Assembly (NCBI GenBank): GCA_973895155.1 | Contig: OZ316894.1 | Span: 10,633,874 to 10,697,873, forward strand | Length of the DNA stretch: 64,000 nucleotides | From: Marsupella aquatica | Taxonomy: Eukaryota; Plantae; Marchantiophyta | Reading direction: 5' to 3' | Part shown: positions 13,601 to 44,940 of the stretch, in pieces | Layout of the letters: each line of letters begins with the position of its first letter | Position numbering within the stretch: the stretch's first letter is position 1 | Made by a program: the position numbers and the translations under genes | The notes under the pieces: generated by a model | What the model was told of the DNA's origin: nothing | Seen by the model: the letters and a program-made list of their open reading frames with translations, nothing else | Databases searched by the model: none

Positions 13601-14715
13601 ACTGTGGAAAAAGCATCAATAAAGACCAGTAGGAGATCTCCATAGGATGCGCCAAGATAAGCTGCATGAGTTGCAACAAGGAGGACCGAACTAAAGGGCA
13701 CAGCGCCAGAGGAATGTGGTTATAAAGGCGAGGTCTAATGTACCCTGGATGGTGGGCTGGAAGGGGGTCTAGAGTGCGAATCCAACTCCATGCCTGCTCG
13801 GGAGCCTCCAAGGAGGGAGGGGCAGAGCTAACAGGGTCAATAGGGGGCTGAGGCTGGGATTGTGCTTGCTGGCAACGATGGCACCACCCCCGCCCGCGAT
13901 GATGAGGGAGGGAGATGCCCACCCATCCACAGTCAGGACAAGTATGCAGGGGACGCTCGTCCGGGGAGGGAGAAGGGAAAGACTGGACAGGAGGTGGGGG
14001 TGGAACAGATGTGGACGAGGAGGCCGGAGGAGGATGGTAAATGGGTGGAGGGGGAATGGGGTGGGGAGAGGAGCCTGGGCGACGACGGGGTGGGCAGTAG
14101 ACTGGGGGGACTGGCAGAGCATCGGGCATGGGGTCATCACGAAGATGAGAGAGATCCAATGAAGAAGAGCAAACACGAAGACGACCACGAGGGGGGGGGA
14201 GGATGGGGGAGAAGTGTGTGGTGAGGCTGGGCGCTTGCCCCGCGCCAACACCCTCAACGCAGACATGACGGGCCACAACCCGGTAAAAGCAAAAACACAT
14301 CAAGAAGCGACAAAAGGCCCAACCAAGGCATGTGAAAAGAAAGGGGAGGCGATGGAGAGAGCCCACTGCATCAGGTCGAGAAACGGCACCAACTGCCAGC
14401 CTAGGAAACCATTGAGCAGGTGCAGGCACAGTAGGGAGCAAAGCTGAAGCACTCATCGATGTGTCCATTGGGGAGTCGACGCGAGTGGAGATCCATCGTT
14501 GGGGCTGATCTTGGGGTCGGTTTGAAGCGCCTCGAGAAGAGCTTTCCGAATCAGTTGACAGATCCAGATTCCAAGTAAAATTGAGGGAGATATGGTCCCG
14601 AAATTGTCACGAAAAATCACCCTGCCGAAACCCAAGAAGAAAGTCGAAATCAAAACCGAAGAGAACTGTGGCGAAACTCGACCGTTTGGGCTGATCTTGG
14701 GGTCGATTCGTCACA
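10630..14715 (-). mobile_element. CRE-clade-like non-LTR retrotransposon (zinc finger + RT + CCHC + restriction-like endonuclease), frameshifted
   Basis: N-terminal CPDCGWVGISLPHHRGRGWC finger. RT motifs GVRPIAIGE, QVDVSNAFN, GTHQGDPLG and SLSDD. C-terminal CTCG..D..GVHLLRC, HDVVRD, DL...ADVVV, KEAKY and FLPLALELFG. T-rich 3' UTR ending in (TA)n. Candidate 8-bp TSD CTCATAAG at 10622-10629 and 14716-14723. Confidence 0.9.
10873..14468 (-). pseudogene. Single RT-RLE polyprotein ORF of the CRE-like element, broken by about 3 frameshifts
   Basis: ORFs 13263-14468, 13084-13272, 11350-13065 and 10873-11340 give consecutive domains in different frames. Confidence 0.88.
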
Positions 14716-22999: not shown

Positions 23000-24440
23000 C
23001 ATCTTGTAAATTGAAGGGTTCTGAATTCACGAACCGAAAAGATACTGATGCTCTCAGCCAAATCCGCAAAGCCACCCCAGACCAGATACAGGATTCATTT
23101 CCGAGGGACAGGGCGTCACCAATTTCATCCGGCCTAGTCGAAGTCCATGTTTGCAAAATGGAATGAATTGAAGAGTTCTGAATTTGAACACAATGCGTCA
23201 CCGATTTCATCCGGCCTAATCGAAGTCCATGTTTGCAAAATGGAATAAACTGAAGGGTTCTGAATTTGAACGTCTCTGAATTTACAAACCAAAAAGACAC
23301 TAAGGGTATCAGCCAAAACCCACGAACCCACCACAGACACAGGATTCTCTTTGGAGGGGAAAATCCGCCACCATTTTCATCCGGCCTCGTCGAAAGTCTA
23401 TGGTTGCTCGTCGAAAGTCTATGGTTGCAAAACGGAATTGCGTTCTCACAATCGAGAGTCTTTTTCAACGGGAGCAAAAGAAGTCCATGTTTGCAAAATG
23501 GAACAAATTGAAGGGTTTCTGAAATTGAAGGTCTCTTCTGAATTAACAAACCAAAAAGACACTCAGGCTATCTATCAGCCAACAACGCCCACGAATCCAC
23601 GACAGCAGACACAGGATTCTCTTTGAAGGGGAAAATCCGCCACCATTTTCATCCGGCCTCGTCCAAGTCTATGTTTGCAAAATGGAATTGCGTTCTCACA
23701 ATCGAGAGTTTTTTTCAACGGGAGCAAAAGAAGTCCATGTTTGCAAAATGGAACAAATTGAAGGGTTTCTGAAATTGAAGGTCTCTTCTGAATTAACAAT
23801 CCAAAAAGACACTCAGGCTATCTATCAGCCAACAACGCCCACGAATCCACGACAGCAGACACAGGATTCTCTTTGAAGGGGAAAATCCGCCACCATTTTC
23901 ATCCGGCCTCGTCCAAGTCTATGTTTGCAAAATGGAATTGCGTTCTCACAATCGAGAGTCTTTTTCAACGGGAGCAAAAGAAGTCCATGTTTGCAAAATG
24001 GAACAAATTGAAGGGTTTCTGAAATTGAAGGTCTCTTCTGAATTTACAAACCAAAAAGACACTCAGGCTATCTATCAGCCAACAACAACCACGAATCCAC
24101 GACAGCAGACACAGGATTCTCTTTGGAGGGGAAAATCCGCCACCATTTTCATCCGGCCTCGTCCAAGTCTATGTTTGCAAAATGGAATTGCGTTCTCACA
24201 ATCGAGAGTCTTTTTCAACGTGAGCAAAAGAAGTCCATGTTTGCAAATTGGAATAAAGAAGGGTTTCTGAAATTGAAGGTCTCTTCTGAATTTACAAACC
24301 AAAAAGACACTCAGTATCAGCCAACAACACCCACGAACCCACCACAGCAGACACAGGATTCTCTTTGGAAGGTACAATCCGCCACCATTTTCATCCCGGT
24401 CTATGTTGGCAAAATGCAGCTGCGTTCTCGAGGACTCCAA
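23000..24440. repeat. Tandem satellite with a 250-bp unit (~5.5 copies, central copies nearly identical)
   Basis: AGGATTCTCTTTG(G/A)AGG at ~23341, 23613, 23863, 24113 and 24355. Each unit contains GTC(C/T)ATGTTTGCAAAATGGAA twice. Confidence 0.92.
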
Positions 24441-25125: not shown

Positions 25126-25433
25126 TGTGGATTCTTTCTAATGATTGTAGAATTAAACCAGATTAACATTGGGCACATGCGTGCATAAATACATATTGGG
25201 TAGGACCCGGATAAGCGCCAACGACAAAAGACGACAAGCATGAGACTTTTATCATCCAAAATAATTGTGGTTAGGACAGACTAAGGGGCGTAGCCAGATT
25301 GATCCAAACGGATCTTGATCAGACGACCTACCCACTAAAAATGAGTGTGAGGCAATGAGAAGCACAACCACTTCTGACATCAAGACAAACGGGTGCCAGG
25401 AAGAGACAAATACTAAGTAGCATGATTCCAACA
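25126..25433 (-). repeat. 3' LTR of the host Copia
   Basis: Aligns with 44637-44940 (e.g. ATACATATTGGGTAGGACC, GGGTGCCAGGAAGAGA, GATTCCAACA). Adjacent to the PPT. Confidence 0.9.
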
Positions 25434-27049
25434 CCCCCTCTCAACCATGGCTTGTAGTGAGTGACTGTTCAGATCAAGCAATATTAATCTACCTATGGGG
25501 AGGAGCAAAGTAAGGCTTCTGAGTGTATCCTATTCAAAGTATACACATAACACCAGTGCACATAGAGTAAATGGGGTCTATCATGCCAGAGGAGGAGGTA
25601 GTGTTGAGAGAGTCTGCAATGCTTCTCATTCTGTCCATGTTGGGGTTTATATCGACAAACTCCCAAAGCATGTGTGATTACTTGGTGTGTAATCATGGCG
25701 GCCAGCCCAAAGAGGAGGACTCTCCCCCTAGTGAAGAACGGGCACTAGAAGAAAACGTCCCCTTTTGAGACCCTATGCTTTGTGACTTTAGGGAGACTTT
25801 CAAAAATACATGACTCCAAGTTTAGGGGAGTCATTGTTGTTACATTTTATCAACTGATTTTTGGGGGATATTTGTGAAAGTCATTCCTACAACTTCTGAT
25901 AAAGTAGCAATTGTAACACTAGTAGGGCAGTCATATGTAAGTTGAATAAGCTACTCTCCATTACGGCATTCTGAAATAGAGTGCAAGAAGGATTACATGC
26001 ACTCTAGACATCACGGAATGTTCCATTTACAACCCTTGACTTGCAACTTGCGGAGTCGGGAGCACTAGGTGCACATAGAAGGAATGGGGGTTTAGGGTTG
26101 CAGAACTAGTTAAATGTCTTCATTTCAAGAGCATTGTAGCTAGTTATCCTAGCTAGCCTAATTAAACGTGCATGGGAGTACTTGCCTCTATAATAGTAAG
26201 TCTTATGCTGCTCAATGGATTCCTTAGAGTTCATGGGCAACTTTGACAAGAATATTGGGGTGATATCATTTTCAATTCAGGGCTAAAGTAGTGTCTGGCC
26301 CCCATTCTTTGTCCACCCTCCCTAAGTGGCATGTGTAAGGGTTAATTTACAGTTGCGTTCTAAGAGGTTACAGTTGCGTTCATTTAATCTTTGCTCACAA
26401 AGTGTCGTGTCCAATTTGCTTTAGGGTACTAACATGTGTATCAACGGCTCATGTCAACGCAAAGTGGTCGAGGCTCATTGGGTTTGGTTCACTAAGTGTC
26501 ACTAAGTGTTAAGGTATGCTTTGTGCGTGAGTGTGCCTTTGGACACGAGTTTAGGGTGCGCGGGTTTTGTTTAGGGTTTAAACACGCCAGCAGAGTGCAA
26601 AGTTCAGTTCAATGTGCGTGGGAACTCGGAGGTTTTTGTTTCAGAAAAACTCACTTGTCCATTTCGGGGACATTCGTCGTGCCTGAAGGTCGTCACATTG
26701 TGCGCGGTCTCACAAAGTGGGGAGTGTGCTTCGCGATCGGGGCAGTTCCTTCGCGTAGGGGAGTTTTGCGCTTGGAGCTTGAAGGTTTACCTTCAAAGCT
26801 CTAGAGCATTCAAGCTGAGAGGGCGACCGGCTTGCGGAGTGGAGAGGTGAGCTGCAGTGGACGACGAGCTCTAGGACTGGGAGGAGCTGTGGGCGGGCAG
26901 GAGCTGCAATTTGGGAGCTGCTCTGGCCGCCGGTCTGGCCGAGGAGCTACGAGCGGAGAGCAGCTGGAGTGGAGCTCGAGCGGAGTGGAGCTGGAGTGGA
27001 GTGCTTCTGTCACACACTGCTGAGGATTGCTACGTAGCTTCAGTTTGGG

Positions 27050-27425
27050 CGGCGGTGCGAGCAGAGGTGCTGAGAGCGGCTCAGGTGCCAAAGGAGGTGG
27101 TGCGAGCGGAGGTGCGAGCGGAGGTGCTGAGAGCGGCTCAGGTGCCAAAGGAGGTGGTGCGAGCGGAGGTGCGAGCGGAGGTGCTGAGAGCGGCTCAGGT
27201 GCCAAAGGAGGTGCTGAGAACGGAGGTGCGAGCAGAGGTGCTGAGAGCGGCTCAGGTGCCAAAGGAGGTGGTGCGAGCGGAGGTGCGAGCGGAGGTGCTG
27301 AGAGCGGCTCAGGTGCCAAAGGAGGTGCTGAGAGCGGCTCAGGTGCCAAAGGAGGTGCTGAGAGCGGAGGTGCGAGCGGATGTGCGAGCGGATGTGCTAA
27401 GAGCGGAGGTGGTAAAAGAGGTGCT
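27050..27425 (+). repeat. G-rich minisatellite of 12/15/30-bp modules inside the CACTA
   Basis: GGAGGTGCTGAGAGCGGCTCAGGTGCCAAA, GGAGGTGGTGCGAGC and GGAGGTGCGAGC are repeated. All modules are multiples of 3, so two + frames and one - frame stay open. Confidence 0.9.
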
Positions 27426-29074
27426 ATTGGATCACTGAGAAGGCTGCAACCTCTCTATCTTATTCCTACTATCTGGCGGTTGCAGTTGGAAGGAGGGTCG
27501 AGTGGCGAACATTTTGTCAGTTGAGGACTTAGCTGCGGGTTTGTCATTTCCTGGAGCTCAATCGCTTGCTACTAAGACTACTGTTGCTGCAATTGCAAGT
27601 TGCTTGATCATGAGCTCCCTAGCTCCATTGTGAGTTGCCTCCCTATTCTCCTTGTTCTCCCTGTCTCCCCCTTGCTTGCAGTTACTATCGCCAGGAAGAA
27701 TGTGTTTGGCCAAGATGCTAGATTGCGACTTGTCTTCTTGCTTCTAGCTCGTGTATATGCTGGCATCCGTGGGGGTTCCTCGAGTTTGAGTCTGCAGAGG
27801 AAGAGTCTATCATAGTCTAATTAAATGTGGGCCATATTACTCTAGTCAATGAATGAGTTCCCTGGAAATAGAACCTCTCTGATTATAGAGGTGCGATTCG
27901 GTCAGAATTTTTTCCCCTCTCATTGTATCCACTGATGCCAACTCACTTTCATCACCTCAATTCTGAACAATGAGCGTAGTCTCAGGCTCCATACTGCCTA
28001 TACTGAATGGTCTAGCTGCGATGTCCACCTCGGCTGAAGTGAGCTCTGACTTGGAGCCTTAACATTTGTGTTCTGTGGGGCTGATTAGAGTTGGTTCCGT
28101 CCAGAAGCTGCTCTACTAAAGTGATAGAGCTCCGGCTTGGAGGTGGATCTTCACTTTTTTGTGGGTCTGAGTGACTTCTGTCTAGCTGGGCTTAGCTGAG
28201 TCAATAATACATTCAAAAGAGGTGAGTATCCCTGACCAACATTTATTTACTCTTGACCACGCCAAACTAATGGCGCTTCAATTTGAACTTTCTAAGTCTG
28301 ACTGCTGACTCCACTCCTTAAAACCTACCTTAATTATATTCATGTCTTTCTTTTGTGCATGCGCATAATGTCTTTCATTCAGTTTAACATAAAATGTGAG
28401 ACAGGGCTGCATCCAGCTCTTCTAGATGACAAGAAGGCATTGATCAGTTGCTTTTTGATCTTTCCTCACCAAACAAGAAATCTTTCTTACAAGAAACCTG
28501 TCTTACAAGAAATCCGGCCAGTCTCACAATGCCATTGTTGATGAAACCTTGCTTCTGCTGATGAAACCTTGCTTCTTCTTAATCCAATGCTTGCTGCCTT
28601 GTTACAACGTTTGTCTAGTTGACCGCTTCAGTGCCTATTCTTCATTTCCTGTTGTTCCATTTTTGGAAATTTATGCTTAAGGAACCTGCATTTCCTTCCC
28701 TGTCCCCATGCTATCTCCACTGCACCTTCCACTGCTAGCTATGTTGATTCCTTCCACTGCTAGCTCTAGACAATGATGCAGTCCAAATGCTGATCAGTCT
28801 CACTGGGGGTGCCGGTGCAGACACAACTCGCACTGTGTGATTGTAGTTTTGCTTTGTCGGGACGAATGTGTTTGGCTAAGATGCTAGATTGTGGCTTATC
28901 TTCTTGCTTCCATCTCGTGTATATTCAATTAGTAGAAGCTGGGAACGAAGTGAAAATTGAATTTCCTTATATTAAGCATCCTGACCTAGAAACTCAATAC
29001 ATAAACTCCTGGAGTCCCTCGGGACATAAAATGAGCCAAATTGTTTCAAAATTGGGAACCTGCACCCGCACTAC

Positions 29075-29416
29075 TCAAACAAATGTGTTGGGCTTGGTGG
29101 CCTTGTAAGTCGTCTTTAGCTTTCACGATGGAGGTTGAATCTTGCGGTACGTCAAGGGGAACTTGATCTTTGAATCATGGAACTGCTTGGTACTTTCTCG
29201 CTTGCACAGAGAGACAGGGACTGTCGTAGTCTTGATGATCTGGATGCAAGGGAACCGAACTCTATGACAAGAAGCCATCTCATCATACATCTGCTCTACA
29301 GCGATGTTCAATGTGGTATCACGATATTTCTTGTACATGTTGGGATAACCTGTACGACTCTGATACCTCACCCAGATACCGAAGTTCTTAATTGTGGTGG
29401 GCTTCTTTTCGAAGAT
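29075..29416 (-). pseudogene. RPL18a: Captured last exon of 60S ribosomal protein L18a (eL20)
   Basis: Reads [63 protein letters not shown]...[10 protein letters not shown]...PS*KLKTTYKATKPNTFV*. Preceded by a CAG acceptor. Premature TGA at 29123-29125. No upstream exons are present. Confidence 0.93.
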
Positions 29417-30424
29417 CTGGTAGACACATTATTCAGCATTTGCTAACTTCGAAACTAGAAGGGTAACACATTAAACAACAGATAAACTCACAACATCCTC
29501 CTTTGGTCCTTCAGAGTCTGTACTTTGATTATGAAGTTTGACTGAGTTTCTGTTTACTGAAAGAATATGACTGTGTAAGAGTTCCGTTTGGCAGTGGATT
29601 GGTTGAAGCACTTCATGCTAGTGTGTTGTCTACAGCTCTTCAACCAGCTTTCGTCTTCCTTGTCTTTCACCACTTACGATGACATCAATTCAGCTAAGAC
29701 CATAGAAGGTTCCAAAGCATCTAACTTGTAAAATCGCATTCTGTTACATCAAGGACTAAGGTGTTGGGTGCCAAAGGAGACAGCACAACAAACACGCTGA
29801 AAAGACTTCAGGACTGGGTTCAACAAGGCAGTGAAGGTGCTTAGAGCCTAGTAAGTATGCATTCTGTATCTTTCTCTGTTGATGTGAGCTTGTGCATAAT
29901 GGGAGTTGTAGTTGGCAAGAGTTCCAAATAAAAATAGATCCAGAAGTATGTGATCATCTACTTGCTCTATAAAGTTCTGAAGATATAAGCATTTTCTGTT
30001 AGACCAGGCAACTTGGGAGTTGGTAAGTGTCACCTGCATCTGAGGGGCTACACCGGGGGCATCAGTGGAGGTTCACTTGCACAACACGACAACCAATGAA
30101 TTTTCTCTCTGCTACAACCTGCAAGGTGAGACTTTCGGTCTTTCTGGATAAAAAAACAGGATTTTAATACGATTGATATACATGTCCGTCGAGAATATGG
30201 GTTTATCACCAAGCTCTTTGTCTTAGGAAACTCATAAACTCAGAATCAAATATGTACTATGTACGTTTCATGCTATGTGTATACTATGACCTGTAGTTGG
30301 AACCAAGACAATGAGTGGGAACTGATTAGTTTAGGTGGTTGCTGTTGGTGAGGCAAGTCGACCTCCTGCTCACCTTGCTCATCAAAGGACGTGAACAGAG
30401 GACATCACAACGAAAGCAACACTT

Positions 30425-30873
30425 ATGGTGAGGACCCGCAACGCTGAACATGTGCGACTTGCACGCAAGGCAGAGATGTTGCGCCTTGAGTATGTCAGAC
30501 TTGGGATCCTTCCAGCCCAGTCTACATGGTACTTTGAGTACCCTGTTGTTTCCAGGAACAACTACAGCGGCCTCTACCTGCTTCAGTACCCTTCCCGACA
30601 TCCTTGGTATTTGTGTCTCTTGTACATGACCCGCCACAAATTAGGTGCCAAGGGTGTGTACACAGTTGCCAATATGACTGTCCTGCCTGTAGGGCTTCTG
30701 GCCCAGAATTGGATGATCGTTCTCTTGGATGCCAATTTTTGCACAGAGCACAATGTATCATCTGGAACCACTCGCCATCCTGCAGTGTGCCTGGTGATGT
30801 CACTTGTCCTGCCCTCCCAGACCCCACCACCGGTGACTTTGGTGTCTACACATGTTTGGATCACATGCTCTAG
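30425..30873 (+). pseudogene. Small Cys/His-rich zinc-finger (PHD/RING-variant-like) ORF, probably frameshifted; CACTA accessory gene A
   Basis: ATG at 30425 (MVRTRNAEHVRLARKAE...). From ~30570 another frame gives CQGCVHSCQYDCPAC...CQFLHRAQC...YTCLDH, with a stop at 30873. Confidence 0.5.
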
Positions 30874-31490
30874 AGGACCACTTGTCACACCGCATGCACA
30901 GACCAGATACCATTGACCTATAGCTTAACACTCTGACTTCAACACAGAGGATATTTACTTAAAATTTTGATGTATGAGCAATTTTGGGTCCAGGGTTTAG
31001 GGTCAACAGTACATAACTTATATCCTATTATGCCTGCACTAAGCAAAATATCCTAATTTAAGAGGCTAGCAAACTCGCATAAAAGTCTCTATTGAAAGAC
31101 TGCTTTCATGACTGCTTTAACCTGGTGAACATTGCAACGTTCAATGAATTAATGGGCCATGTGATAACCTGTAAAATGTGATTTATGCATCACTTATTTG
31201 TCTCAGCCACTATCATAGCCTATTTAGGATGTATAAATTTCAACCCTTATGACACTGTTTCATACCAATCCTCTTCGAAGAATGCGCGTTTTACATGTCA
31301 CGACTATTGTATGTGATTCAAATGCATGAAATGTTGTTGCAAATCTCCTTTGGTGAATCATAGCCACAATTAAAATTGAGGTGTTGGTGGAGCAATTGTA
31401 TTAGGGGATCAGGTTTGTGTGTGGGCTCAACATACCAAAAGTATGTATGCTCTGCATCCTTGTGTGGCCATTCCAATTCATTGCAGTAGC

Positions 31491-31634
31491 AAATGCCTTT
31501 GTACCTTAAATGCTAAATATATTTTACTTTCTGTGCAGTCTGCTAAATTGTAGAGTCTATCTAAATGCCTTTGTACCTTAAATGCTAAATATATATTACT
31601 TTCTGTGCAGTCTGCTAAACTGTAGAGTCTATCT
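31491..31634. repeat. 72-bp direct tandem duplication just upstream of the PHD gene
   Basis: AAATGCCTTTGTACCTTAAATGCTAAATAT...GTAGAGTCTATCT occurs twice, nearly identical. Confidence 0.9.
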
Positions 31635-31645
31635 CATGCGCAGGC

Positions 31646-32330
31646 ATGGCATGACCTAAAATTCAAGCCAAAAAGCGTGTGACAGAGGTGAGAAACACAG
31701 GTGTACTTGGGGCAGATGCTACTAACTTCTCTGCAAGTCAGATTTTCCAGAAGGCAGCTCATTGTTGTGCCATTTGTGACGATGGTGGGGGCCTGGTCAT
31801 TTGTGAGGGCCCTTGCATGAGGCATTTCCACCTCAACCCGGAGTCTGACCTTGCTGCAGAAAACAATTGTCCAGGGGTGGGCCTCCCGTCAACACACCAG
31901 GGAGACTGGATGTGCACTGATTGTTTGGAGAAGCAGGCTAACTAAGTGTGCACAGTGTGGGAAGTTGGGGTCCTATGAGGGCTCTATTGATGCTGCAGCA
32001 AATGTTAGGAAATGTCCAGACCATTTTTGTGTGAGATTTTTCTGTTTTGAGTGTTTGCCTGCTCATGCCACAGCTTGCCCACTTCATAGGTGCAAGGCAT
32101 GTGGTGAGCATGATCATGAGTACTGGACTGACATAGTCCACTGTGCTAGGTGTCCCACCATGTGGCACTATCATTGCCTGAAAGATCGTCAAGCAGAGGG
32201 TTATGCTTGTGATAGAGAAATCTCTGATCACTCTGCACATGGTGTTGATCGATGGATATTTTATTGTCATCGCCATGCCATTGATCCTACCTCGCGCACT
32301 CCTGTGAGAGATCACATATCTTGGCTGTGA
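31646..32330 (+). pseudogene. Stand-alone EDM2/NSD-type triple PHD-finger protein; CACTA accessory gene B (two lesions in this copy)
   Basis: ATG GCA TGA CCT AAA (MA*PKIQAKKR, probably CGA>TGA). Then CAICDDGGGLVICEGPCMRHFH...C..C, a 4-bp CTAA duplication at ~31938-31945 that shifts the frame, and KCAQCGKLGS...CPLHRCKAC...CARCPTMWHYHCL...YCHRHAIDPTSRTPVRDHI. This matches the recalled EDM2 pattern CAICDNGG..CCEG.C.RSFH / CPLHKC..C / CRRCPKSYHRKCL / YC..HEID....TPVRDH. Confidence 0.85.
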
Positions 32331-32922
32331 AGCTGAACATTGTACATGCACAGTGCACCTGATGTGGATGTACTATTTTTTGAGATTGCAGAGATTCCAA
32401 TTTTGAAAAGGAGTTGGGTAGACGAGTTTATATAGGCAGCACTTATCTTGTGCTCTGGCGTCAGTGGCTGGGTACATGCCTATAAAAACTTATCCTTACA
32501 AGCCTTCTTGGAAGTATTTAGGCTGAGTGGTCATTTTCATAAACACTTTCATCAGATTGCTAAATTAAAACAGGACTTCTAAGTTGTAAGCGTATAAATT
32601 ATCAGGCATGCGATTAATGAAATTGCCCTATAAGTTTGTCATTGAACGTATCCTCCTTTACAACAAAATATGTATGTGCCATGACAAGTTGGTTGCACTT
32701 CATTTCACCTTCGATATGGATTTTGTAGTATATATTCAAACAATGTCCTACATCCGTGCAGGTGCCTAGTACGTATTGTTCACATATCCCTTGTACCTAT
32801 CAAAATCGGACCTGAGCACCAGTGGGCCAGATCAACTCAAGAAGCAGGAATTTTGTTGTCCTTGTATTGTCAGGTGAACCCATTCTTCCAAAATTCACTG
32901 TCATCACGTAGGGTGTGTGTAC

Positions 32923-33795
32923 ATGGAGCCTGGGAAATGTAGAAAGTGTGACCACCCAACAGTGTTTACAGGGGTCAGAGCCATTTTGGTCCATGGCCAG
33001 CATGGGTTGACCAAAGTGCATTGGCCAATTGTACAGAAACAATTCTCTGAGCTCCATGGCACTGTAGTTCAGGACATCACTCCAGAGACTACACATGTTG
33101 TTGCAGGGACATGGCTATCAGTGATAAAGAAGTGGTCATGGTCCTACATGAATTCTGCAATTACTAAGCAAGGCCTAAAAGTAGTTGAGGCCTCTTGGAT
33201 CACAGATTCCATAGCACATCAGATTGTACAGGATACTGAGCAATATGAGCTGTGGGAGGATGAAGAAGCTACTGCATCAGCTTGGGCTGAACAAGAAGTC
33301 TGGGAAGCAAAGGCACGGCTTGCTGATGTCCAATATGGACCTGTACTCAACAAAGGACAGAGCTCTAGAAGGCTGAAGAGTATGTTGGCTGAGGAGACGA
33401 AGCAACCAACCCCCATTCTGAAAGGGCTGAGCATGGTATTTGTGGAGGCGGGAATTGGAGAGGTTAAGTGCAAAGTGTACAAGTCCACGGTGCTTGATCT
33501 AGGTGGGACAGTGGAGGAGAATATAACAGAGGACACCACTCATGTCATTACTAAGTCATATCCCAAAGCCTGCCGCAAGTTTGGGAAGGGAGACATTCGC
33601 TTTTATGTCATGTCCCATAATGTGTTTGTGGTTTCATATGCTTGGCTTGTGGAATCAGTAGCAGCTGGGAAGTGTCAAAACCCAATGGACTATGATCTTT
33701 TTGAGGCCTGGCCACGGAAGGGTCAGGATCCTTACAGAGAGGACTATGAGACAACAAGTGAGGAATGGGTCATTAGCGATTCTGAATCAGAGTGA
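32923..33795 (+). CDS. Tandem two-BRCT-domain protein (DNA polymerase lambda-like BRCTs); CACTA accessory gene C, intact 290 aa
   Basis: Two homologous repeats: VFTGVRAILV...LHGTVVQDITPETTHVV...VVEASWITDSI...YEL and ILKGLSMVFVEAG...LGGTVEENITEDTTHVI...KFGK...VSYAWLVESVAAG...YDL. Both have the BRCT GG, THV and WxxxS hallmarks. Acidic tail EEWVISDSESE. Confidence 0.85.
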   Translation: MEPGKCRKCDHPTVFTGVRAILVHGQHGLTKVHWPIVQKQFSELHGTVVQDITPETTHVVAGTWLSVIKKWSWSYMNSAITKQGLKVVEASWITDSIAHQIVQDTEQYELWEDEEATASAWAEQEVWEAKARLADVQYGPVLNKGQSSRRLKSMLAEETKQPTPILKGLSMVFVEAGIGEVKCKVYKSTVLDLGGTVEENITEDTTHVITKSYPKACRKFGKGDIRFYVMSHNVFVVSYAWLVESVAAGKCQNPMDYDLFEAWPRKGQDPYREDYETTSEEWVISDSESE

Positions 33796-34467
33796 GGAGT
33801 AGTAGCATCAGTTTGGACACAAGTTTTTTGTATAAATCAGATCATTGAAATAAATGTGATCTTTGAACTAATGTACCTTGTTATGGTTGGTGGCAGTTGG
33901 GCTTATTTTACTGTTGGCAGATTGTTGTTTCTTGCTGCCTGGGGGTGTCACTGTAAACGTACTGGGTGGGCTCAAATCTCGGCGGTGAGATATCTGATAC
34001 CGCTCTCACACCTATGCCTATGACTATACATGATTGGACTCTGATATGGTCATGGGTGTACATGTAGAGGCGGTACATTTGAGGACAGCTGTGGAGGTGG
34101 TGACACCCTCAAACATTGAGGAATTTTGTGTCATTCACTTGACAATAGGTACACTACTCGCAAACCTGTTTTTTTCTTTTGGGGTGGTTTAGGGTTTGTG
34201 AGAATTTATTACACGTTATGTTAACTCTTTTGGCACATACAGTCAGGGATATATGGAACACAAATACCACCATTAGGCATCCCTGTTCACTGCTGTCCAT
34301 GACTACAGAGCTTCCAGCCTGTTGCAATGCACCCTGGTCACCACCCTCCCCAAACCCAGCCCAGGGCACAGGCACTGCCTTTGCATCATCCCACAAGGAT
34401 ATCACGCCATGATAATAAGCTTTGGCAGCGTGAAAGGTTATGAACCAGACTTTCAGGAGCCAGTAGG

Positions 34468-37400
34468 ATGAGATGTCCTTGTGCAATCTGCCAAGGATCC
34501 CGTACCAGGGGTCTGAATGAGGTTTGGCGGCATATCGCGGTTCATGGAAGAGATCCACGACATCGAGTTTGGAATGATCCTGTAGAGGAAGATTCTTCCG
34601 ACGAGGAGTGGAGGTTAGAATTTGATGCTGCCAATGCTGCAAGACGGGCAAGTGAGGTTCTGCCTGGTGCATTTGAAAATGTTGTAGCTGGTCTTTGTGG
34701 ATTGTCAGCTCTCCAACGGGATGGTGCTCAGGCAGCACCACGTGACGAAGGAATTCATGTGGAAGAGATGGTGAGAGACATCTTCCAAGACTTGGATGCA
34801 TTTCATGATGGGCTGGACAACGAAGAGGATACGGCTGCAGATGCAAGTGTGCCCCCTGTCAAAGAGCCTCTTGATGAGTTTGAGATAGGGCAGGAAACCC
34901 CTGGGCATGATGGGATGTTTGGCTCTCCCCTGCAAATACAAGAAGGCAGGAAGTCTTTGTACCCCAGTAGCAAATGTTCTAAACTGGGATTTGTCATCAT
35001 GTTCCTGAACATTTGCGACAACCACAATGTCCCCAACGTTTTGGTTTCTGAGTTGTTGGCATTCTTGCGAACAACTGTGCTACCAGATGGTAATATTTTG
35101 CCCAAGAACATGTACGAGGCAAAAAGATGCATATCTAATCTTGGATTGAACTATGATTCGATCCATGCCTGTCCTGATGGGCATGTTCTTTTCAGAAAGG
35201 AGTATAAAGAATCGTTGACATGCCCTAAGTGTGGGAAGCACAAGTATCGGAACTCAGGAAAGTCTATGGTTCCCACCAAGGTACTTCATCATTTTCCACT
35301 CATTCCCAGACTTCAGCGGATGTTCAGAAGCCGTGCCATCTCGGAGATGATGACTTGGGCAACTGACAAGAAAAGTGATGATGGGCTACAACGACATGCT
35401 GCAGATTCAAGGCAATGGAAACTCATAGATGAGATGTATCCCGAATTTGCTGTTGAGCCGAGGAATGTCAGACTTGGGCTGTCATTGGATGGGGTAAACC
35501 CATTTGGAGACAAGAACAATAAATTTTTGTGCTGGCCTGTAACTATTTTGAATTATAACCTTCCTCCTTGGATGACTACAAAGCGATTTTTTGTTCTGAT
35601 GGTCCTACTGATACCAGGGCCAGACAATGCTGTATCTGCCAACATAGATGTGTTTCTGGCTCCCCTAGTGGAGGAATTGAGAAAGCTTTGGGAGGAAGGA
35701 GTTCTCACATATAATGTCCTACAGAGGCTTGGGAGGTTAAACCCATTCATCCTTAGAGCCATTGTCATTCTGACTATAGCTGACTACCCAGCCCATGGGA
35801 TGATATCAGGCCAAACAACAAAAGGATATTGTGCTTGTACTATCTGTGGGCGCAATGTCACGAGTGAGTACTCCAGAGCCCTGCCGAAAGTGATATACTT
35901 GGGCCATTGTCGTTTTCTGAAGGCAGATCACCCTTACAGAGAAAGATAGGCACTAATTGCACACTTTGGCAATGAGATTGAGCAACGTGGACCCCCGGCA
36001 CGAGTGACCAAAGAGGAGATCAGGCAGTGGGGAGCACTGAGGGATGACTATATCAAACGAGGGGGCAGGGAAGATGGAGTGAGTGATCCAATAAAGCGAT
36101 ATGGTGTAAAAAGACTGAGCATATTGGACTTGGAGCTCAAGTACTGGAGGGTAAGCCTCTTGGAGTTGATGCTAATTGGGATACATGTTTTGGTTCAGAG
36201 CATGTGCATTCATTTCGAAGAGAGAGACTAAACTTGAGGCATTTCCTGACGCTTTTGCATTGCAACAATGCAGGAGTTTGAGCCAAGCAAACATAACATT
36301 GATGTTATGCATATTGAAAAGAATATTTGTGAGAGTCTACTCAGATTCTTGTGTGGAGAGAAAGACACTGGTTCAGTGAGATTGGATCTTGAACAGAGGG
36401 GAATGAAACCCCATCTTTGGTTGAGGCCACATGCCCACAGAGCTGATGTGCTCTTGAAGTACCAAGCGCCCTATGTTCTGACAGACACAGAGTGGGAACT
36501 ATTTGTGCAGAGGTTGAGTTCTTTGAAGGTTCCTTCAAACTATGGTAGTGCTTTCAAGAAACATATCATGACTAGAAAGCTTGGTAGTATGAAAAGCCAT
36601 GACTACCATATGTTGATGCAACAGGTGTTGCCTTTATGCCTGAGGGGCCTGTTGCAGAAGCCTGTTCGTACTGTGATCATGCGACTCAGTGATGTGTTTC
36701 GTCGTATTTGTGTGAAGGTTTGGGATGAAACACACTTCCCACAACTGACAGAAGATGTCGCTCAGGTGCTGTGTGACCTGGAGATTTATTTTCCTCCCGC
36801 ATTTTTTGATGTCATGACCCACCTACTTGTCCATGTTGTGGAAGAGCTACACCAATTTGGGCCTGTGAGTGCTCGTTGGTTGTACCCTTTGGAACGGTAC
36901 ATGAAGCTACTCAAAGGTCACGTGCGAACATATTACAAACCTGAAGCAAGCATGGCTAAAGGTTACATCAAGGATGAGACTCTGGGATTTCTGACCGAAT
37001 ACATAGCACAATATGAGCATGTGAAGACCAGGGTGTGGAATTATGATGAGGAGGAAGGGGTGATAGGTGAAGTACTGGAAGGGGCTGCAACCACAAAGAA
37101 CCTGACCATATCTATGAGAGACTTGGCACATGACTTTGTATTGCACAACACTGTGGTGATGGAACCCTGGATACAGTGAGTGCATACATGTGCTATAATC
37201 CAGTTCATGAGCTTAAATGTTGTGTTCGTGTGGTTTTCTCCTTCAGCCTGTTCATGTTTACCCAAGCTAATGCTATGTGGTTGTTCGTTCAGGGAGTATG
37301 AGTCATTGAAGGCGGCCCATCCCACTGCAGGAACAACTTTTCCAGGTTTCATGGAGTGGATCAGAGTGGCAATTAGAGAGCATCACGAGACCCACCCAGA

Positions 37401-38058
37401 CATGGATGCAGATGTTTACCTACTGTCTAATGCCCCTAGCCTGAAAGTGAAGACTTACAAACGGATGAGAGCATATGGGAATCACTTTCGAGTGAAGGAT
37501 GGTGACAGTGCCTATAGGGTGACGAATGACTGCGGGCTCATCACTGTATTTGAGCAACAGAGCCACAATCACGACAGGGCCTGGATGGAGATGGGATATG
37601 TGGGAGAATTAGTTGACATATGGGCTCTGGACTATGGGGCGGTGTCCAGTCCTGTGATTCTTATGAAAGGTTCATGGGTGCGGCAGGATTGGCTTGGTAA
37701 CAGGGCTACCATGAAGAGAGACAACGACGGTTTCTTGCTGGCCAATTTCAGAGGGAAATTGCCCGAATGGTCTGAGCCATTTGTGTTTCCTAGTCAGGTG
37801 GAGCAAGCTTTCTTCCTGGATGTGGAAGACTCCCCAGGTTGGCGTGTAGTGTGTCATAAACAGGCCAGGCAACGTCGGATGGAAGGATCAAACCTTGAGT
37901 TTCATTTACACTCTCATAGTGCCTTTGATCGTCGACATTCAGACCAAGTGCCTGTAGTTCATGATAGCGGGGACTTCATTCCTGTGACAAGGGTAGATGC
38001 ATTTGCTGAAGGAGGCGAATTCAGAGATGCAGATGCCAACAGTGTGCCTGTGCCATGA
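34468..38058 (+). pseudogene. tnpD: CACTA TnpD/Tnp2 DDE transposase (Transposase_21 + DUF4218 + DUF4216 type), 3 exons, one in-frame stop
   Basis: Motifs CPCAIC, IHACPDG, HFPLIPRLQRMF, RNVRLGLSLDGVNPF, YNLPPW, IADYPA, HNIDVMHIEKN, MKSHDYH, FPPAFFDVMTHL, WLYPLERYM and EPFVFPSQVEQAFF. GT-AG introns at 36151-36273 and 37176-37292 keep the frame. TAG at 35947-35949 interrupts exon 1. Confidence 0.95.
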
Positions 38059-38214
38059 GTAATGTGAATTGTTTGCATGGACATTAGTGAGGGGAAGGAT
38101 GTGTAATAAAGTAATTCTGAAGCAACACAGATGTATGGATGGATGCCTGGTGATTGTGGTTGCATTGTGTTATACGGGGTGATCATAGATGACATGTTTT
38201 TGTGGTCCAGTAGG

Positions 38215-41200
38215 ATGGAACAGAGTGACACAGAGATGTGTGAGTATGAAAGGAAAGCTATGGAACAACGAGCATACGTGAAAGCCAAAATCGCAGAACT
38301 GGATCTGGAAAAGGATGTGGCTGAATTGTAAGGGAACGATTCTCAACTACACCCCTCCGCTGAGTTTGTGTGACATGAATAGTTCAATGTGGCACTGAAA
38401 TTGTGACTGTATTCTCATATTGGAATGTTGCAGAGCCACAGCATTTTCAAAGAAACAAAAGGAGTACGCAAGAAGGGTGACCAGCACTATCTCTGGGCCT
38501 GTGCGTCGGAGTGATAGGTTGAGCAAGAAGGTCGTACCTACAATGGCAGAATGTGGAGATGACATTGATGCTGCACAGGTGGGTGCAAACACTAGACAAG
38601 AAGATGCAGATGATGAGTATTTTCCAGAGGAAATGGATGAGGATGGGGGTTATGAAGATGAATACATTGCAGAGCAGCCCCAAAAGAAACAGGTAAGTAG
38701 TTTTCCCAACAAGGTTTTGAGTTAAAAACTCTTGTTTAGAGGTTTCATATGTTCAGTACTACACATATGTACCTTGCTTAGTTCCTGACATTGTAGTTGG
38801 TGATGTGATGCAGCGTCCTGCCAGTTCTGTTTTGCCTTCGAAGCCTGTGCATGTACCATACCAGCAGGGGGGGCTGACCTCTGATCAAGGTTGGCAAGGT
38901 GGTAGTAGTGGTAGATCCCAGGCTGGTGCCCAATACTATGGCAGGGGGCAAGCTCTAGGTTATGCCCGTGGTAGAGGCAGAGCAGGTCCAAACCCACAAT
39001 CTCGTGGGTATGGACGTCCACCTCAACCATGGGGATGTGATATATCTATATGCCAATTCTTTGTGAAGGCATGGCACTCCTGAATTTCAGACTGCATATC
39101 AATTTTTGACATTGTTTGGTATGTATTGGATTCAGACAACATGAAATTCTGTCCACCTGCCATTGCATGCAGATTCTGCCCAACCTGATTGGGCAAATGC
39201 TAGTAATGATCAGTTCCAATGTCCACAAGGACAGACATGGGTTGAACCAGGTTGGGAGGATGGTGGTGGGTCGTGGAATGAACAAGGTTGGGAAGGTGGT
39301 GAAGGTAATTGGCAGGGATATCAAAATACAATACCTACAAACGCTGGAAGAGGGGCAGGTAATGTCTGATCTTGTCAGCAATGGAAGAACTCATTATATC
39401 TGGAGTCCATTCACGTGGGGGGACTCTGCACATGTATAATGATAGAAAATGTATGTGTGCAGGTTGGACAGTCGAACCATCGACTCAAGTATTCACTAAT
39501 GCCCCTATGCAGATGCAGCACGGAAGGGGGACAGGTATGTTGGTGAATGTTCAGTTGTTTTCCTACAGTTTGTACTTAGTTTTCAGTACATATGTTTGCA
39601 CACACATACCTAGAAAGTGACATCATCCGGCCCCTGTACTAGGCTGGACAGGTGGTCCAGGGTCGCAACAATTTCAGAGTGCAGTCCCTGCACAGGCATC
39701 TACAGGCAGAGCTACAGGTATGTATGTTTGAAGAATTTTTCTTGAAGTGAAGCATTGAATGTTGCCGTCATCCATTCTGCTATATGTAGTTCTCAAGCAT
39801 GAATGGCATTGTATTTTCCCAGGTGGCTTCAGAACCCCAGGTAGGGTGAATGAAGGGGTGGCCAATACAACGCCCAGTACTACCGAGAGCAGTGCACGAG
39901 GGGAGGTGACAAAGAAAGGGAACGTAAAGTTGAATGAGAGACAATGGGTGGATGCTGAGTGTCCTCGCAAGAACCAATGGCATGCTGATTTGAAAGCTGA
40001 AGTATTGCGTTGGTTAGATGTGAGTGTTATTAATTTTAAAAAACAGCATCCAAAAGATTGGAAGACTGTATGTGAAAATGTTGCTGCCAAATGGAATTAT
40101 GTGGGCAATGATGATGGCGTGGACATAGGTTGCCTAGAGAGTACAGCAGGTAAAATCATCAAGCAAGAGAGGTGGAGAATGCATAAGGCTTGGAAGGAAG
40201 GTGGGGAGAAGCCAGATATGCCTCCACCAGCCAGTTGTGATGATAAAGTGTGGGCAAAGTTAGTAGCTTATTTTGTAATAGATGCTTCAAAAAAGAAGAG
40301 TTCACAGATGACCGAGGCCAGGTTGAGTGTTCAGAACCCTAATCTGACAGGAAGGACCGGCACTGCACCGACAGCTAAACGTTTGGTAAGAATGAATGGC
40401 CTAGCTATGTAATTTATGCTACACTATGTACTGTTTTTTAGTGTAAACCCATACATGTAAACTTTGTTTTTTAGTGTACGTTCCCTGAATATTGATCGAT
40501 AACTTGTGTTTGCCATGCATGTGCAGAAAGCCCAATTGGGGCAAAGCCCTTCAAAAGAAGAGTTGAGGGCTGAAATTGTGAACACCCGGGCTCAAGAGGG
40601 TGCATCTGAATCCTCCAAGCATGTAAGTTATATGAGTTCTGATTGGTAATTGAATGACCTGCGTTGAATTTCAGGTGTACACTGTATATAACATTGATTG
40701 TGCATATATTGCCCAACATTTCATATGGAGTGATTGAACCTATACCCCTGTGTCATGTAGGGAGGTGGATCTTCACTTACAGAGATAAGTGGTCGTTTGA
40801 AGGCTGTCGAAACATGTCTTCCAGAGATCAATGAACGTTTGAATTCATTGACTGACTTGTTCCATGTGAACTTCAAGACATTAATGGAAGCTGTTGTGTC
40901 GGTGAGAGATAAAATTGATTCCAATTCTGCAGGAGTTCCACCATCACCACTTGAGGTGGCAAAGTCGATGCACTCTTCTGGCATGCCAACGACATGTAGG
41001 CTTGAAGGTAAGGCCTTTACAATTGTGTGGGATATGATTATTAAATGTATAGTTTGAATTGACATTGTTTGTTGAATGTGTTATTTTCAGTAACATATAT
41101 TGTGGTTGTTGTGTCCATAGAGAATAAGACAGGTGCTACAGAGAAGAAGTATGAGAACCTAGCAAATACTCGCTGTAATTTAGAGGCAACAAAGTTGCAG

Positions 41201-41917
41201 TCTGTACAAGCAACTTGTTTGACAGAGGGCAGTCAACCATGTTTGGATGAGGATGACATTGGCAAGGGAGTGGATGATATCAATGTTGGGGCAAATGAGG
41301 ATATCAACAAGCATGACAATGATACCATTGAGCCAGATTCATGCTATGTAGATCTTGACTCCATTGCAGAGATAAATGATTTGCAGAATGTATCATTCTC
41401 AATGACAGGTGTGTCTCTTGTTGAGATAAATCCAACCAAAGAGTTAGTTGGTATGACACTCCCAGGTGATGAACCTGCTACTGTGACAGTCCTAACAGAG
41501 GAACCTACTGAGCCTAGCTTCACTACTGTGAAGAGAGGAAGCATGCGCACACGAAGCAAGTCTGCTGGTGGGAGCAGAGCCACGTCAAAGGTTTCATACA
41601 AACCTCCAAGAACGGTGCTGGCAGAAAGATCTAAAGTGGAAGTGGGTAAAGCACCTAATGCTGAGGGACAAAGTGGCTTGTTAGCTCTTGATGAGAGTGG
41701 AACACGAGTAGGATTTGGCAGAGTGCAGGTTGGTTCCACAACGTTCCATGGCAAGAGGATTCCCCCAGGTTATTCAGTAGTGTTAGTCACATTACTAGTG
41801 AAACCTAAAGCTGTCCTTCCCATTCCAAACACAAATGATGATCCTCCTCAAAAGACACTTGGAGATGCTGCAGGTTCTTTGGTATTATGGCCAAGCAAGT
41901 TCATAGAGGATCCATAA
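38215..41917 (+). CDS. Multi-exon CACTA TnpA-like protein (Ptta/Transposase_24-like core and C-terminal Tnp1/DUF8039-like domain)
   Basis: In-frame GT-AG introns at 38328-38433 and 38693-38813, with more short introns downstream. Core KIIKQERWRMHKAW...PP...WAKLVAYF...KKSSQMTEAR...TGRTG. C-terminal VGFGRV...FHGKRIPPGYSVVLV...LPIP...TLGDAAGSLVLWP. The exon structure and integrity are only partly resolved. Confidence 0.75.
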
Positions 41918-43387
41918 CAATGTCATGCCATTATTTGTTTGTAGTGTGAGTCATGTTATGTAGATTTTAGATGTCAAGAAGCAGTACAAGAATCATGTCC
42001 TCTTGGAGATTCATAGTATCATGCATGTGCTTTCAGTTATCTCATCCTGCAGTCATCAATTATGAGTTCCTGTTTTGTCTGAATTACATTGATCACATTG
42101 TAAACTATTCCATTGGAATTCAAATGATCTTCATTTTTTAGCAAGATTGTGATTGTGTTTAATTCTTATGAATGTTTTATGTAGGATCTGCTTATATGAT
42201 GCTTTGTTTCATGTGGATGTCATTCATGCTATGTTCATTTCTTGTATTCAATGTGTTATATTTCTAAAGTTAGAACATCAGGTTTCTATGTATTGTAATG
42301 TCGAGTGCTCTCTCTCCTTATGAACTGTCCCTCTGTGTTCATTAGTCATGGTTATAACTTGCATGTGAACCTTATTAGTTATAAACATGAGTATATAGAG
42401 TTCCAAATGGTTCTGTTGTGTGACGCGGGCCAGGGTCTCCATTGGTCTCTCCTGTGACACTAAATGGTCACACGCTAGTCGTTGTTGAATGCGGGTAAGT
42501 CATGTATGTGACTTACGATGTGACTCGCTGAAGTCATATTGCAGTCACGTCGAAACAAGGCTAGACTCCACAATAAAGTCACAGATCAGTCACAAATGGG
42601 TATCAAGCAAGTTGCAAAGCCCAGTATCAATAGTGACTACCATTTTTTGGTCTCAACTTTTGCAACTCCAAGGGTCACAGCGTGGGTCAAGTCACGTTGA
42701 GTCACAATGAAGTCACATGAGCCAAAATGAGTCACATATTGCGGTCTCAGTTCACCTCGGATTCTTCTAGTGGGGGAGAATCATTGAAACCACTAGCTGG
42801 TGCCGCAATAAGAGTTGAGAGAGCCAAGGAAGAGCACTTTCAAATAATGGGGCCAAGTATTCCAATATACAAAGAAGAGACTCGGTGCCTCTCGCCAAAC
42901 GGATAAGCTGGAGCTTTTTTAGAGGATCAGGCAGCCCAAACAATATTGTTCAGTGGCTTGAGGTTATTAGGAGGTTGCCAACAAATAGCAATATAATTAT
43001 GATCATTTTTCCTCCTTAGTGTAAGATGTACAAATTTGGATCTAGAGAGCTACGTATGCACCTATTGACCTTAGGAACGAGTCTACCTTTCTTTACCAAG
43101 CCCTGGGACTTTGGTTAAGGCCATAGATTGACTTTCCAAGTATGCAAACAAGTTTTTCTTTATCAAGAGTAAGGAATCCTGGTGGGTGCCTAAGAGTCCT
43201 GTTGAGTTGACAGTAACCACATCCATATGTGACAAGGACCACCCTAGTGCAGCTGCAAGCACCACTCTTAGTGTGAATGTTGACCACTTGACTACCAGAG
43301 CAAATGTTTCTTCATAATCTGATCCTTCCAACTGTTCATTTCCCCTTGCGACTATTTGTGCATTGAATTTGATGTTGCTTGCATGGT

Positions 43388-43762
43388 CATGATTGAGGGA
43401 GACAACAGAGAGGCTATGACGGTGGAGCAGACAGACGCAATTGCAACTTTTGTGGCAAGCAAGGCCATTGGGAAGTAACCTGCTTCATCAAATCAACCAA
43501 CATTGAGATCAAACCAATGTATGTGTCTTAGCTGAAAGATTTGCAAACCATGATGCCTTGGACCCAAGAGTAGCTTTGATGTCTTTGATCCTGGAATGCA
43601 GATCTTTCAGCTGCGACACAAACATTGTTTTAATCTCAATGTCAGCTGATTTGATGAAGCAGTCACTCTGCTTCCCAGTGGCCTTGCTTGCCACAAAAGT
43701 TGGAGTAAGTCATGCCTGTCTACTCCACCATCATAGCCTCTCTGCTATCTCCCTTAATTATG
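43388..43762. repeat. Inverted duplication (~160-bp arms, ~50-bp spacer) of the Copia gag zinc-knuckle region
   Basis: CAACTTTTGTGGCAAGCAAGGCCATTGGGAAG (~43444) pairs with CTTCCCAGTGGCCTTGCTTGCCACAAAAGTTG (~43671). Arms are 43388-43545 and 43597-43762. Confidence 0.9.
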
Positions 43763-44636: not shown

Positions 44637-44940
44637 TGTGGGAGTTTTCTAATGATTATAGAAACTTGATTAACATTGAAGACAATGCAAACATGCGTAA
44701 ATACATATTGGGTAGGACCTAGATAAGCGCAAACAGCAGAAGACAACAAGGATGAGACTATGATCATCTGGAATAATAGTGGTTAGGACAAATTAAGTGG
44801 TGCACAGCTAGACTGATCCAAATGAATCTTGGTCTGACAAACCCAGTAACAACAAGTCTCAGGCAGTCAAAAGCATAACCACTTCTTACAGCGAGACAAA
44901 TGGGTGCCAGGAAGAGAAAAATACCAACTTGATTCCAACA
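44637..44940 (-). repeat. 5' LTR of the host Copia
   Basis: TG..CA ends, adjacent to the PBS, followed by TSD GGAAC. Confidence 0.9.

Follow-up and report, generated by a model that had tools for sequence, protein, structure and literature searches.

The window analysed here is a 64,000-nucleotide stretch of a Marsupella aquatica contig. At 31646–32330 (+) it holds a broken stand-alone gene for a protein with a histone H3-tail-like N-terminus and an EDM2-type PHD module, delimited by its reading frame, its relatives and their alignment. The gene lies within a 17-kb CACTA (En/Spm) element (25743–42772, +), a copy bounded by inverted ends that match at 11/11 positions (CACTAGAAGAA; left terminal repeat 25743–25753, +; right terminal repeat 42762–42772, −) and by a GGG target duplication. 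We screened 137 x 114 CACT[AG] end pairs for these limits. Forty-four passed a loose filter, and 25743/42772 is the only pair in the screen that combines an 11-bp perfect inverted match with a 3-bp target duplication. In sequencing run X2, the match of a related contig to the window begins exactly at 25743. The right subterminal region (42419–42736) carries 11 copies of GTCACA, counted on either strand, against one at the left end. The first-pass annotation had placed the PHD gene inside a transposon, and the ends at 25743/42772, with tnpD on the same strand, bear this out.

The genes of the element follow one another on the + strand as a Cys-rich ORF, the PHD gene, a tandem-BRCT ORF, tnpD and tnpA-like exons. 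The tnpD transposase exons (34444–38058, +) match PF02992 (6e-63), DUF4218 (5e-28) and DUF4216 (1e-4) and contain a premature stop at 35947–35949, which makes the copy in the window defective. The tnpA-like exons (38400–41917, +, limits approximate) match PF03004 at E 0.0024, under its cut-off. The tandem-BRCT ORF (32923–33795, +) is open and contains two stretches matching PF00533 (E 8e-14); its only PDB matches are weak ones to BRCA1 BRCT, and its second repeat may resemble the BRCT domain that DNA polymerase lambda has in plants. The Cys-rich ORF (30425–30873, +) starts M-V-R-T-R, is a candidate upstream accessory gene and matches no convincing Pfam family. It is frameshifted in the window, and related contigs have 1 nt inserted behind 30567; their high depth suggests that it is a regular gene of the element. 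The left arm (25800–29400) includes a GC-rich 57-bp tandem array (27049–27411) and, nearby, an intronless captured fragment of ribosomal protein L18a (29126–29428, −).

Direct repeats at 25135–25433 and 44646–44940, 77% identical, flank the element, and a reverse transcriptase lies to its right (43086–43481). The element was likely inserted into a decayed old Copia element, of which the direct repeats would be the LTRs. An imperfect inverted repeat of 375 bp (43388–43762, 76%), MITE-like or hairpin, is found in the same flank.

This arrangement could be read in terms of targeting, with the PHD reader and the tandem-BRCT protein holding TnpA/TnpD at chromatin that is marked or damaged, and so steering integration or repair; the basic N-terminal tail would then be a docking site or an import signal. 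Two predicted types of chromatin-mark reader do adjoin upstream of tnpD, the copy in the window sits inside a decayed Copia element, and contacts between accessory proteins and transposases are reported for CACTA, Harbinger and MULE elements (PMC12973397). We nevertheless consider targeting unlikely: one insertion site is uninformative on preference, and the conservation of H3-register residues in the tail, described below, is left unexplained.

The PHD gene begins with an ATG at 31646 and ends with a stop codon at 32328–32330. Its first lesion is a TGA at codon 3 (31652–31654, +), where related sequence has CGA, and its second a duplicated CTAA (31938–31945, +), whose 4 extra nt shift the frame. 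Read through with X at both breaks, the gene runs for 227 steps with no further stop. The first-pass annotation had supposed that two lesions hide a protein of about 226 residues, a view confirmed by an intact relative, P0002, which has 226 residues and aligns at 81% identity over 100% of the length. It had also ended the frame exactly at the EDM2-like TPVRDH motif; the actual end is four residues (ISWL) further on.

The predicted product comprises an N-terminus resembling H3 residues 1–9 (31649–31675, +), recognised from register counts in the family and from shuffles and broken here by the codon-3 stop; a first PHD finger (31766–31924, +), placed by Pfam and by PDB matches of the family profile; and a shortened second finger, a third finger and an EDM2-like C-terminal motif (31947–32327, +). 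Three NSD-type PHD models of Pfam match in order along it, in keeping with the PHD array that had been seen to follow the start. The first model exceeds its curated cut-off solely with the N-terminal piece (30.5 bits versus 27), and with the full read-through all three models stay under theirs. The description of the module as a triple-PHD array of EDM2 type holds as regards the three models, but EDM2 itself is described with two and a half atypical repeats (PMC7529245). Immediately 5' of the start lies a 72-bp tandem duplication (31491–31634), which covers an apparent intron 3' end. A splice donor at 31689 was considered and dropped because P0002 aligns gap-free there; its +5 position is variable in related contigs.

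Eleven sequencing runs were considered for related copies, 9 of them covering at least part of the region, from 7 studies; 5 runs were compared. None of the 11 was an RNA run, which is uninformative on expression. At position 31652, C rather than T makes up 96–100% of the summed contig depth in 4/4 runs, and the extra CTAA is missing in 96% (X1), 38% (X2), 100% (X3) and 87% (X5) of the depth. Between about 29.5 kb and the right end of the element the summed contig depth is 30,000–300,000 (X1, X2), while the single X1 contig that extends into the right flank has a depth of 118. Over the left 3.5 kb the depth is lower than in the rest of the element by a factor of roughly ten to forty, and the left arm (25800–29400) is probably a subfamily-specific or nested segment. 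Bins over the PHD gene and over tnpD have depths of the same order in X1 and X2. This pattern, taken as a pattern and not as a copy number, points to a multi-copy CACTA family of which the PHD gene is a regular part; depth is unsuited to ranking the genes. In run X6 the bins over the PHD gene and over tnpD are both deep, a hint that a diverged element may carry the two genes; no contig links them, and the run was left out of the evidence. A search for intact sister copies had been proposed: most related sequence is free of the lesions, but none of the contig pieces listed spans the whole PHD gene, so that no intact in-element copy was seen in one piece. Among differences between related contigs, synonymous changes make up 13 of the 33 coding changes in the 40 listed of 149 rows (expected fraction 0.21–0.28), a weak skew.

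Beyond the element's own copies, a search with one sequence picked out 4 relatives from 88 candidates, P0002 being the best, and a profile search picked out 13 from 896, almost all of them unnamed assembly proteins. Eleven of the 13 are 213–245 residues long and end at or shortly past H-I-S-W; of the other two, the first is truncated, and in the second the similarity breaks off halfway. Pairwise identity within the family is 35–79%, two near-duplicate pairs aside. Twenty-seven Cys/His columns are conserved in at least 12 of the 14 rows of the family alignment, the C-D-G of the first finger is invariant in the 14 rows, with Glu in the window copy, and the genes have no introns. In 400 metagenome stretches we found one relative (L001:754–1429), a frameshifted member with the start motif A-R-P-K on a 1.5-kb contig in which no transposon context was found. 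Pattern matches in viral contigs (27) and prokaryote genomes (16) yielded no confirmed relative. The family is an old one of stand-alone proteins, whose linkage to a transposon is established for the window's own family only.

The common start and stop, the kept zinc ligands and the shared non-EDM2 N-terminus, all at 35–50% identity, exclude neutral decay. The gene product is very probably a selected protein that acts on chromatin in some way. The conservation that excludes neutral decay is also compatible with a host function for distant members. The same features count against the gene being passive cargo, whether an EDM2 fragment captured in Pack-CACTA fashion or a small host gene family acquired once. 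For cargo one can cite the ribosomal protein L18a fragment in the same element, the dead copy in the window and distant relatives known without established transposon linkage; but the shared start, stop, ligands and N-terminus have persisted, introns are absent, and lesions occur in only part of the copies, and we regard cargo as very improbable.

Searches with the family placed its fingers closest to EDM2. Among 23 matches to long proteins, 3 are EDM2-type (103–110 bits, 82–85% coverage) and 20 are NSD2 (37–56 bits), which upholds the proposal that a profile would favour EDM2/NSD PHD kinship; none of the sequence-level outcomes named as contradicting the first-pass reading was obtained. Trimmed segments score 67–84 bits against EDM2 (3 rows) and 2–6 bits against NSD2 (8 rows). 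The composite PHD module is common to the family and EDM2, with about 30% identity over 82–85% of the length, and a C-terminal motif, Y-C-x2-H-x-I-D...T-P-x2-(D/N/Y)-H-I, is shared by the family and EDM2 and absent from NSD2. In unrooted trees with three angiosperm EDM2 rows, which omit P0014–P0016, L001 and 12 NSD2 rows, the family falls on one side at 83/85, and at 61/79 without three long rows. The first three fingers of NSD2/NSD3 belong to the same Pfam finger series and give the best solved-structure match (E 3e-14), yet their scores lie far under those of EDM2, and their SET and PWWP domains are absent from the family. The best solved matches of the family profile to the first finger are NSD2/3, followed by AIRE, PHF12, CHD4, PHF21A and TRIM33; the PDB matches include no solved EDM2 finger module. 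The fingers of AIRE, PHF12, CHD4, PHF21A and TRIM33 recognise the free end of H3 with K4 unmethylated.

The family differs from EDM2 in many respects. The RFD, PGR, methyltransferase-like and Pro-rich parts of EDM2 are all absent: Pfam searches of 14 members gave convincing matches to PHD models only, the product has 226 residues and the stop is conserved, as expected from the first-pass statement that no other EDM2 domain is present. Further differences are the H3-like N-terminus, the intronless gene and, for the window's family, residence in a transposon. The second finger of the family has a His-to-Cys swap and a deletion of roughly 20 residues. Ahead of the first Cys, EDM2 has acidic residues where the family has P/A-H, and this replacement of the acidic stretch means that H3 specificity may have changed. 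The age of the family, the swap, the deletion and the missing acidic stretch rule out a recent EDM2 fragment. By full architecture the product lies outside the EDM2 family, and it probably works like the reader part of EDM2; EDM2 binds H3K9me2 (PMC9910501, PMC7529245).

In the first-pass model, the module would either recruit the ASI1-AIPP1-EDM2 complex or displace it, and thereby allow transcripts to read through to tnpD/tnpA. EDM2 is the closest named relative, several ORFs of the same orientation precede tnpD, and in heterochromatic transposons the complex suppresses polyadenylation at cryptic sites (PMC10241880); EDM2 raises COPIA4 transcripts and lowers Mu1 transcripts (PMC3632883). We judge this model the less likely one, and rather improbable: every other domain of EDM2 is missing, identity in the finger module has dropped to about 30%, and competition with EDM2 would be expected to decrease read-through, not to increase it.

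Features of the N-terminus point elsewhere. The sequence MARPKIQAKKR had been described as a basic, NLS-like start; it is basic, but its likeness to H3 residues 1–9 had been overlooked. The H3 N-terminus reads ARTKQTARKS (PMC8166343). We compared 15 N-termini (the window, read as A-X, the 13 relatives and L001), dropping two near-duplicates. A-R stands near the start in 13/15, right behind Met in 10 and behind M-P-H/S in 3, in which Ala1 would be buried; two lack it. Anchored at A-R, so that positions 1–2 served as the anchor of the counts, K4 is found in 11/13 (two lack it), A/S7 in 11/13, against a shuffled mean of about 2, and K9 in 8/13. K4, A/S7 and K9 occur jointly in 8/13, against a shuffled mean of 0.11–0.27 and in 0 of 20000 shuffles for three window sizes. 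K9 by itself is modestly over the shuffles (p 0.005–0.036). Family members share descent, and the shuffle values are therefore not independent probabilities. The full motif occurs in 4/4 lineages that retain A-R. Between lineages, identity reaches 0.72 at position 4 and 0.42 at both position 7 and position 9; it is 0.32 at position 3, 0.30 at position 6 and 0.02–0.16 at positions 10–22, an unconserved linker; the distance from Ala1 to the first Cys is 33–42 residues.

The tail departs from H3 at positions 3, 6, 8 and 10: P3 is found in 7/13, K6 in 8/13, R8 in 0/13 and S10 in 0/13. In H3, T3, T6, R8 and S10 serve as sites for kinases or as determinants for methyltransferases. The residues read by PHD pockets are A1, R2 and K4. 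Retention of A1/R2/K4 with loss of T3/T6/R8/S10 favours a reader ligand over a writer substrate. Of about 21,000 human proteins, 48 satisfy a published rule for H3 mimics, M-small-R-x-K. In the family the rule is satisfied by 8/15 N-termini (the window, whose own copy has a stop there, counted with the Arg codon found in related contigs, and P0014 counted from its second Met), and by 0/23 of the full-length EDM2/NSD2 matches. Searched against the PDB with phmmer, the window's tail matched no histone (0 hits at E 10).

The tail could also be an ordinary appendage of a true reader, an NLS or a motif for an RBBP4/MSI1-type WD40 chaperone, with an incidental likeness to H3. Lys makes up 25% of tail residues 3–15, K6 is as common as K9, the upstream Cys-rich ORF likewise starts M-V-R-T-R, and SALL1, FOG1 and BCL11 contact NuRD through such N-termini (PMC8166343). 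An import signal has no need of a terminal Ala-Arg, a small residue at position 7 or a fixed spacing of 33–42 residues, and we think this explanation quite unlikely.

Our preferred reading, held tentatively and with somewhat less than even confidence, is that the PHD gene is a conserved CACTA accessory gene whose product would be a small H3 reader that bears a mimic of the H3 tail, the mimic gating the reader and capturing others. Removal of the first Met would expose a free A-R-x-K end suited to an H3-binding PHD pocket, and the tail could plug the protein's own pocket by way of the 33–42-residue tether. A nucleosomal H3 tail, probably K9-methylated as for EDM2, would displace it, and the released tail might in turn capture other readers, be they additional molecules of the protein or host EDM2-type proteins. 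Silenced CACTA copies would thereby be coated or shielded in a way that still permits transposase transcripts; in Arabidopsis Spm, H3K9 methylation is retained during activation by TnpA (bioRxiv 10.64898/2026.08.24.746577). A more elaborate version, which we consider possible but doubtful, would make the protein a histone counterfeit encoded by an ancient plant CACTA lineage: an EDM2-derived H3K9me2 reader with a phosphorylation-proof fake tail that chains readers head to tail or traps host EDM2, forming with the BRCT protein a histone-level anti-silencing and targeting kit unlike VANC and TnpA.

Two single-chain AlphaFold2 models (13–14 rows; mean pLDDT 70.5 and 67.3) have residues 1–26/27 below 50. 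The tail is undocked in them, which is neither support for nor evidence against folding back. Foldseek with a model returned multi-PHD proteins at low TM-scores, and VIA-align gave no match with a Z of 5 or more; both are uninformative.

The proposed tail has counterparts in known proteins. H3 mimics such as VRK1, BCL11B, influenza NS1 and G9a share an M-small-R-x-K start that can engage PHD fingers (PMC8166343), and in BAZ2B intramolecular histone mimicry by a linker gates the PHD finger (PMC5663869). Unlike the known H3 mimics, the family tail extends the likeness to A7 and K9, has a candidate reader in cis and is encoded by a transposon. Like the PHD gene, VANC of VANDAL elements and TnpA of Spm are accessory genes of DNA transposons thought to oppose silencing. 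VANC and TnpA are described as sequence-specific and directed at DNA methylation, whereas no DNA-binding domain is recognised in the PHD protein, whose predicted targets are histone tails.

PHD domains are also carried by MULE and RAG2-like elements. In PMC12973397 Table S6, which covers the active TIR elements found across 1007 plant genomes, there are five PHD rows, all MULE, with generic PHD models and not the EDM2/NSD-type series; about 775 active CACTA clusters have no PHD row there, and the one BRCT row is in CACTA. We found no report of an EDM2-type PHD or an H3 mimic in CACTA in a literature search that had most subscription papers and Repbase outside its scope. A conserved transposon-encoded chromatin factor with an H3-like tail and an EDM2-type reader is thus apparently undescribed. 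If the proposal is true, it would amount to an anti-silencing strategy at the level of histones, akin to viral histone mimicry and beyond the DNA-methylation route of VANC and TnpA. The family also offers a natural minimal EDM2 finger module of 226 residues with a built-in candidate ligand, which makes EDM2-type reading of H3K9me2 directly testable.

Elsewhere in the window, the putative remains of a non-LTR retroelement (10876–14606, −) comprise a reverse transcriptase and, beyond it, a Cys/His motif and a stretch that resembles an endonuclease. A 250-bp tandem satellite (23008–24429) has about four near-identical copies flanked by diverged units. A host COG5 gene (55147–57720, +) has its coding sequence, about 857 codons long, in a single open frame and is apparently intronless.
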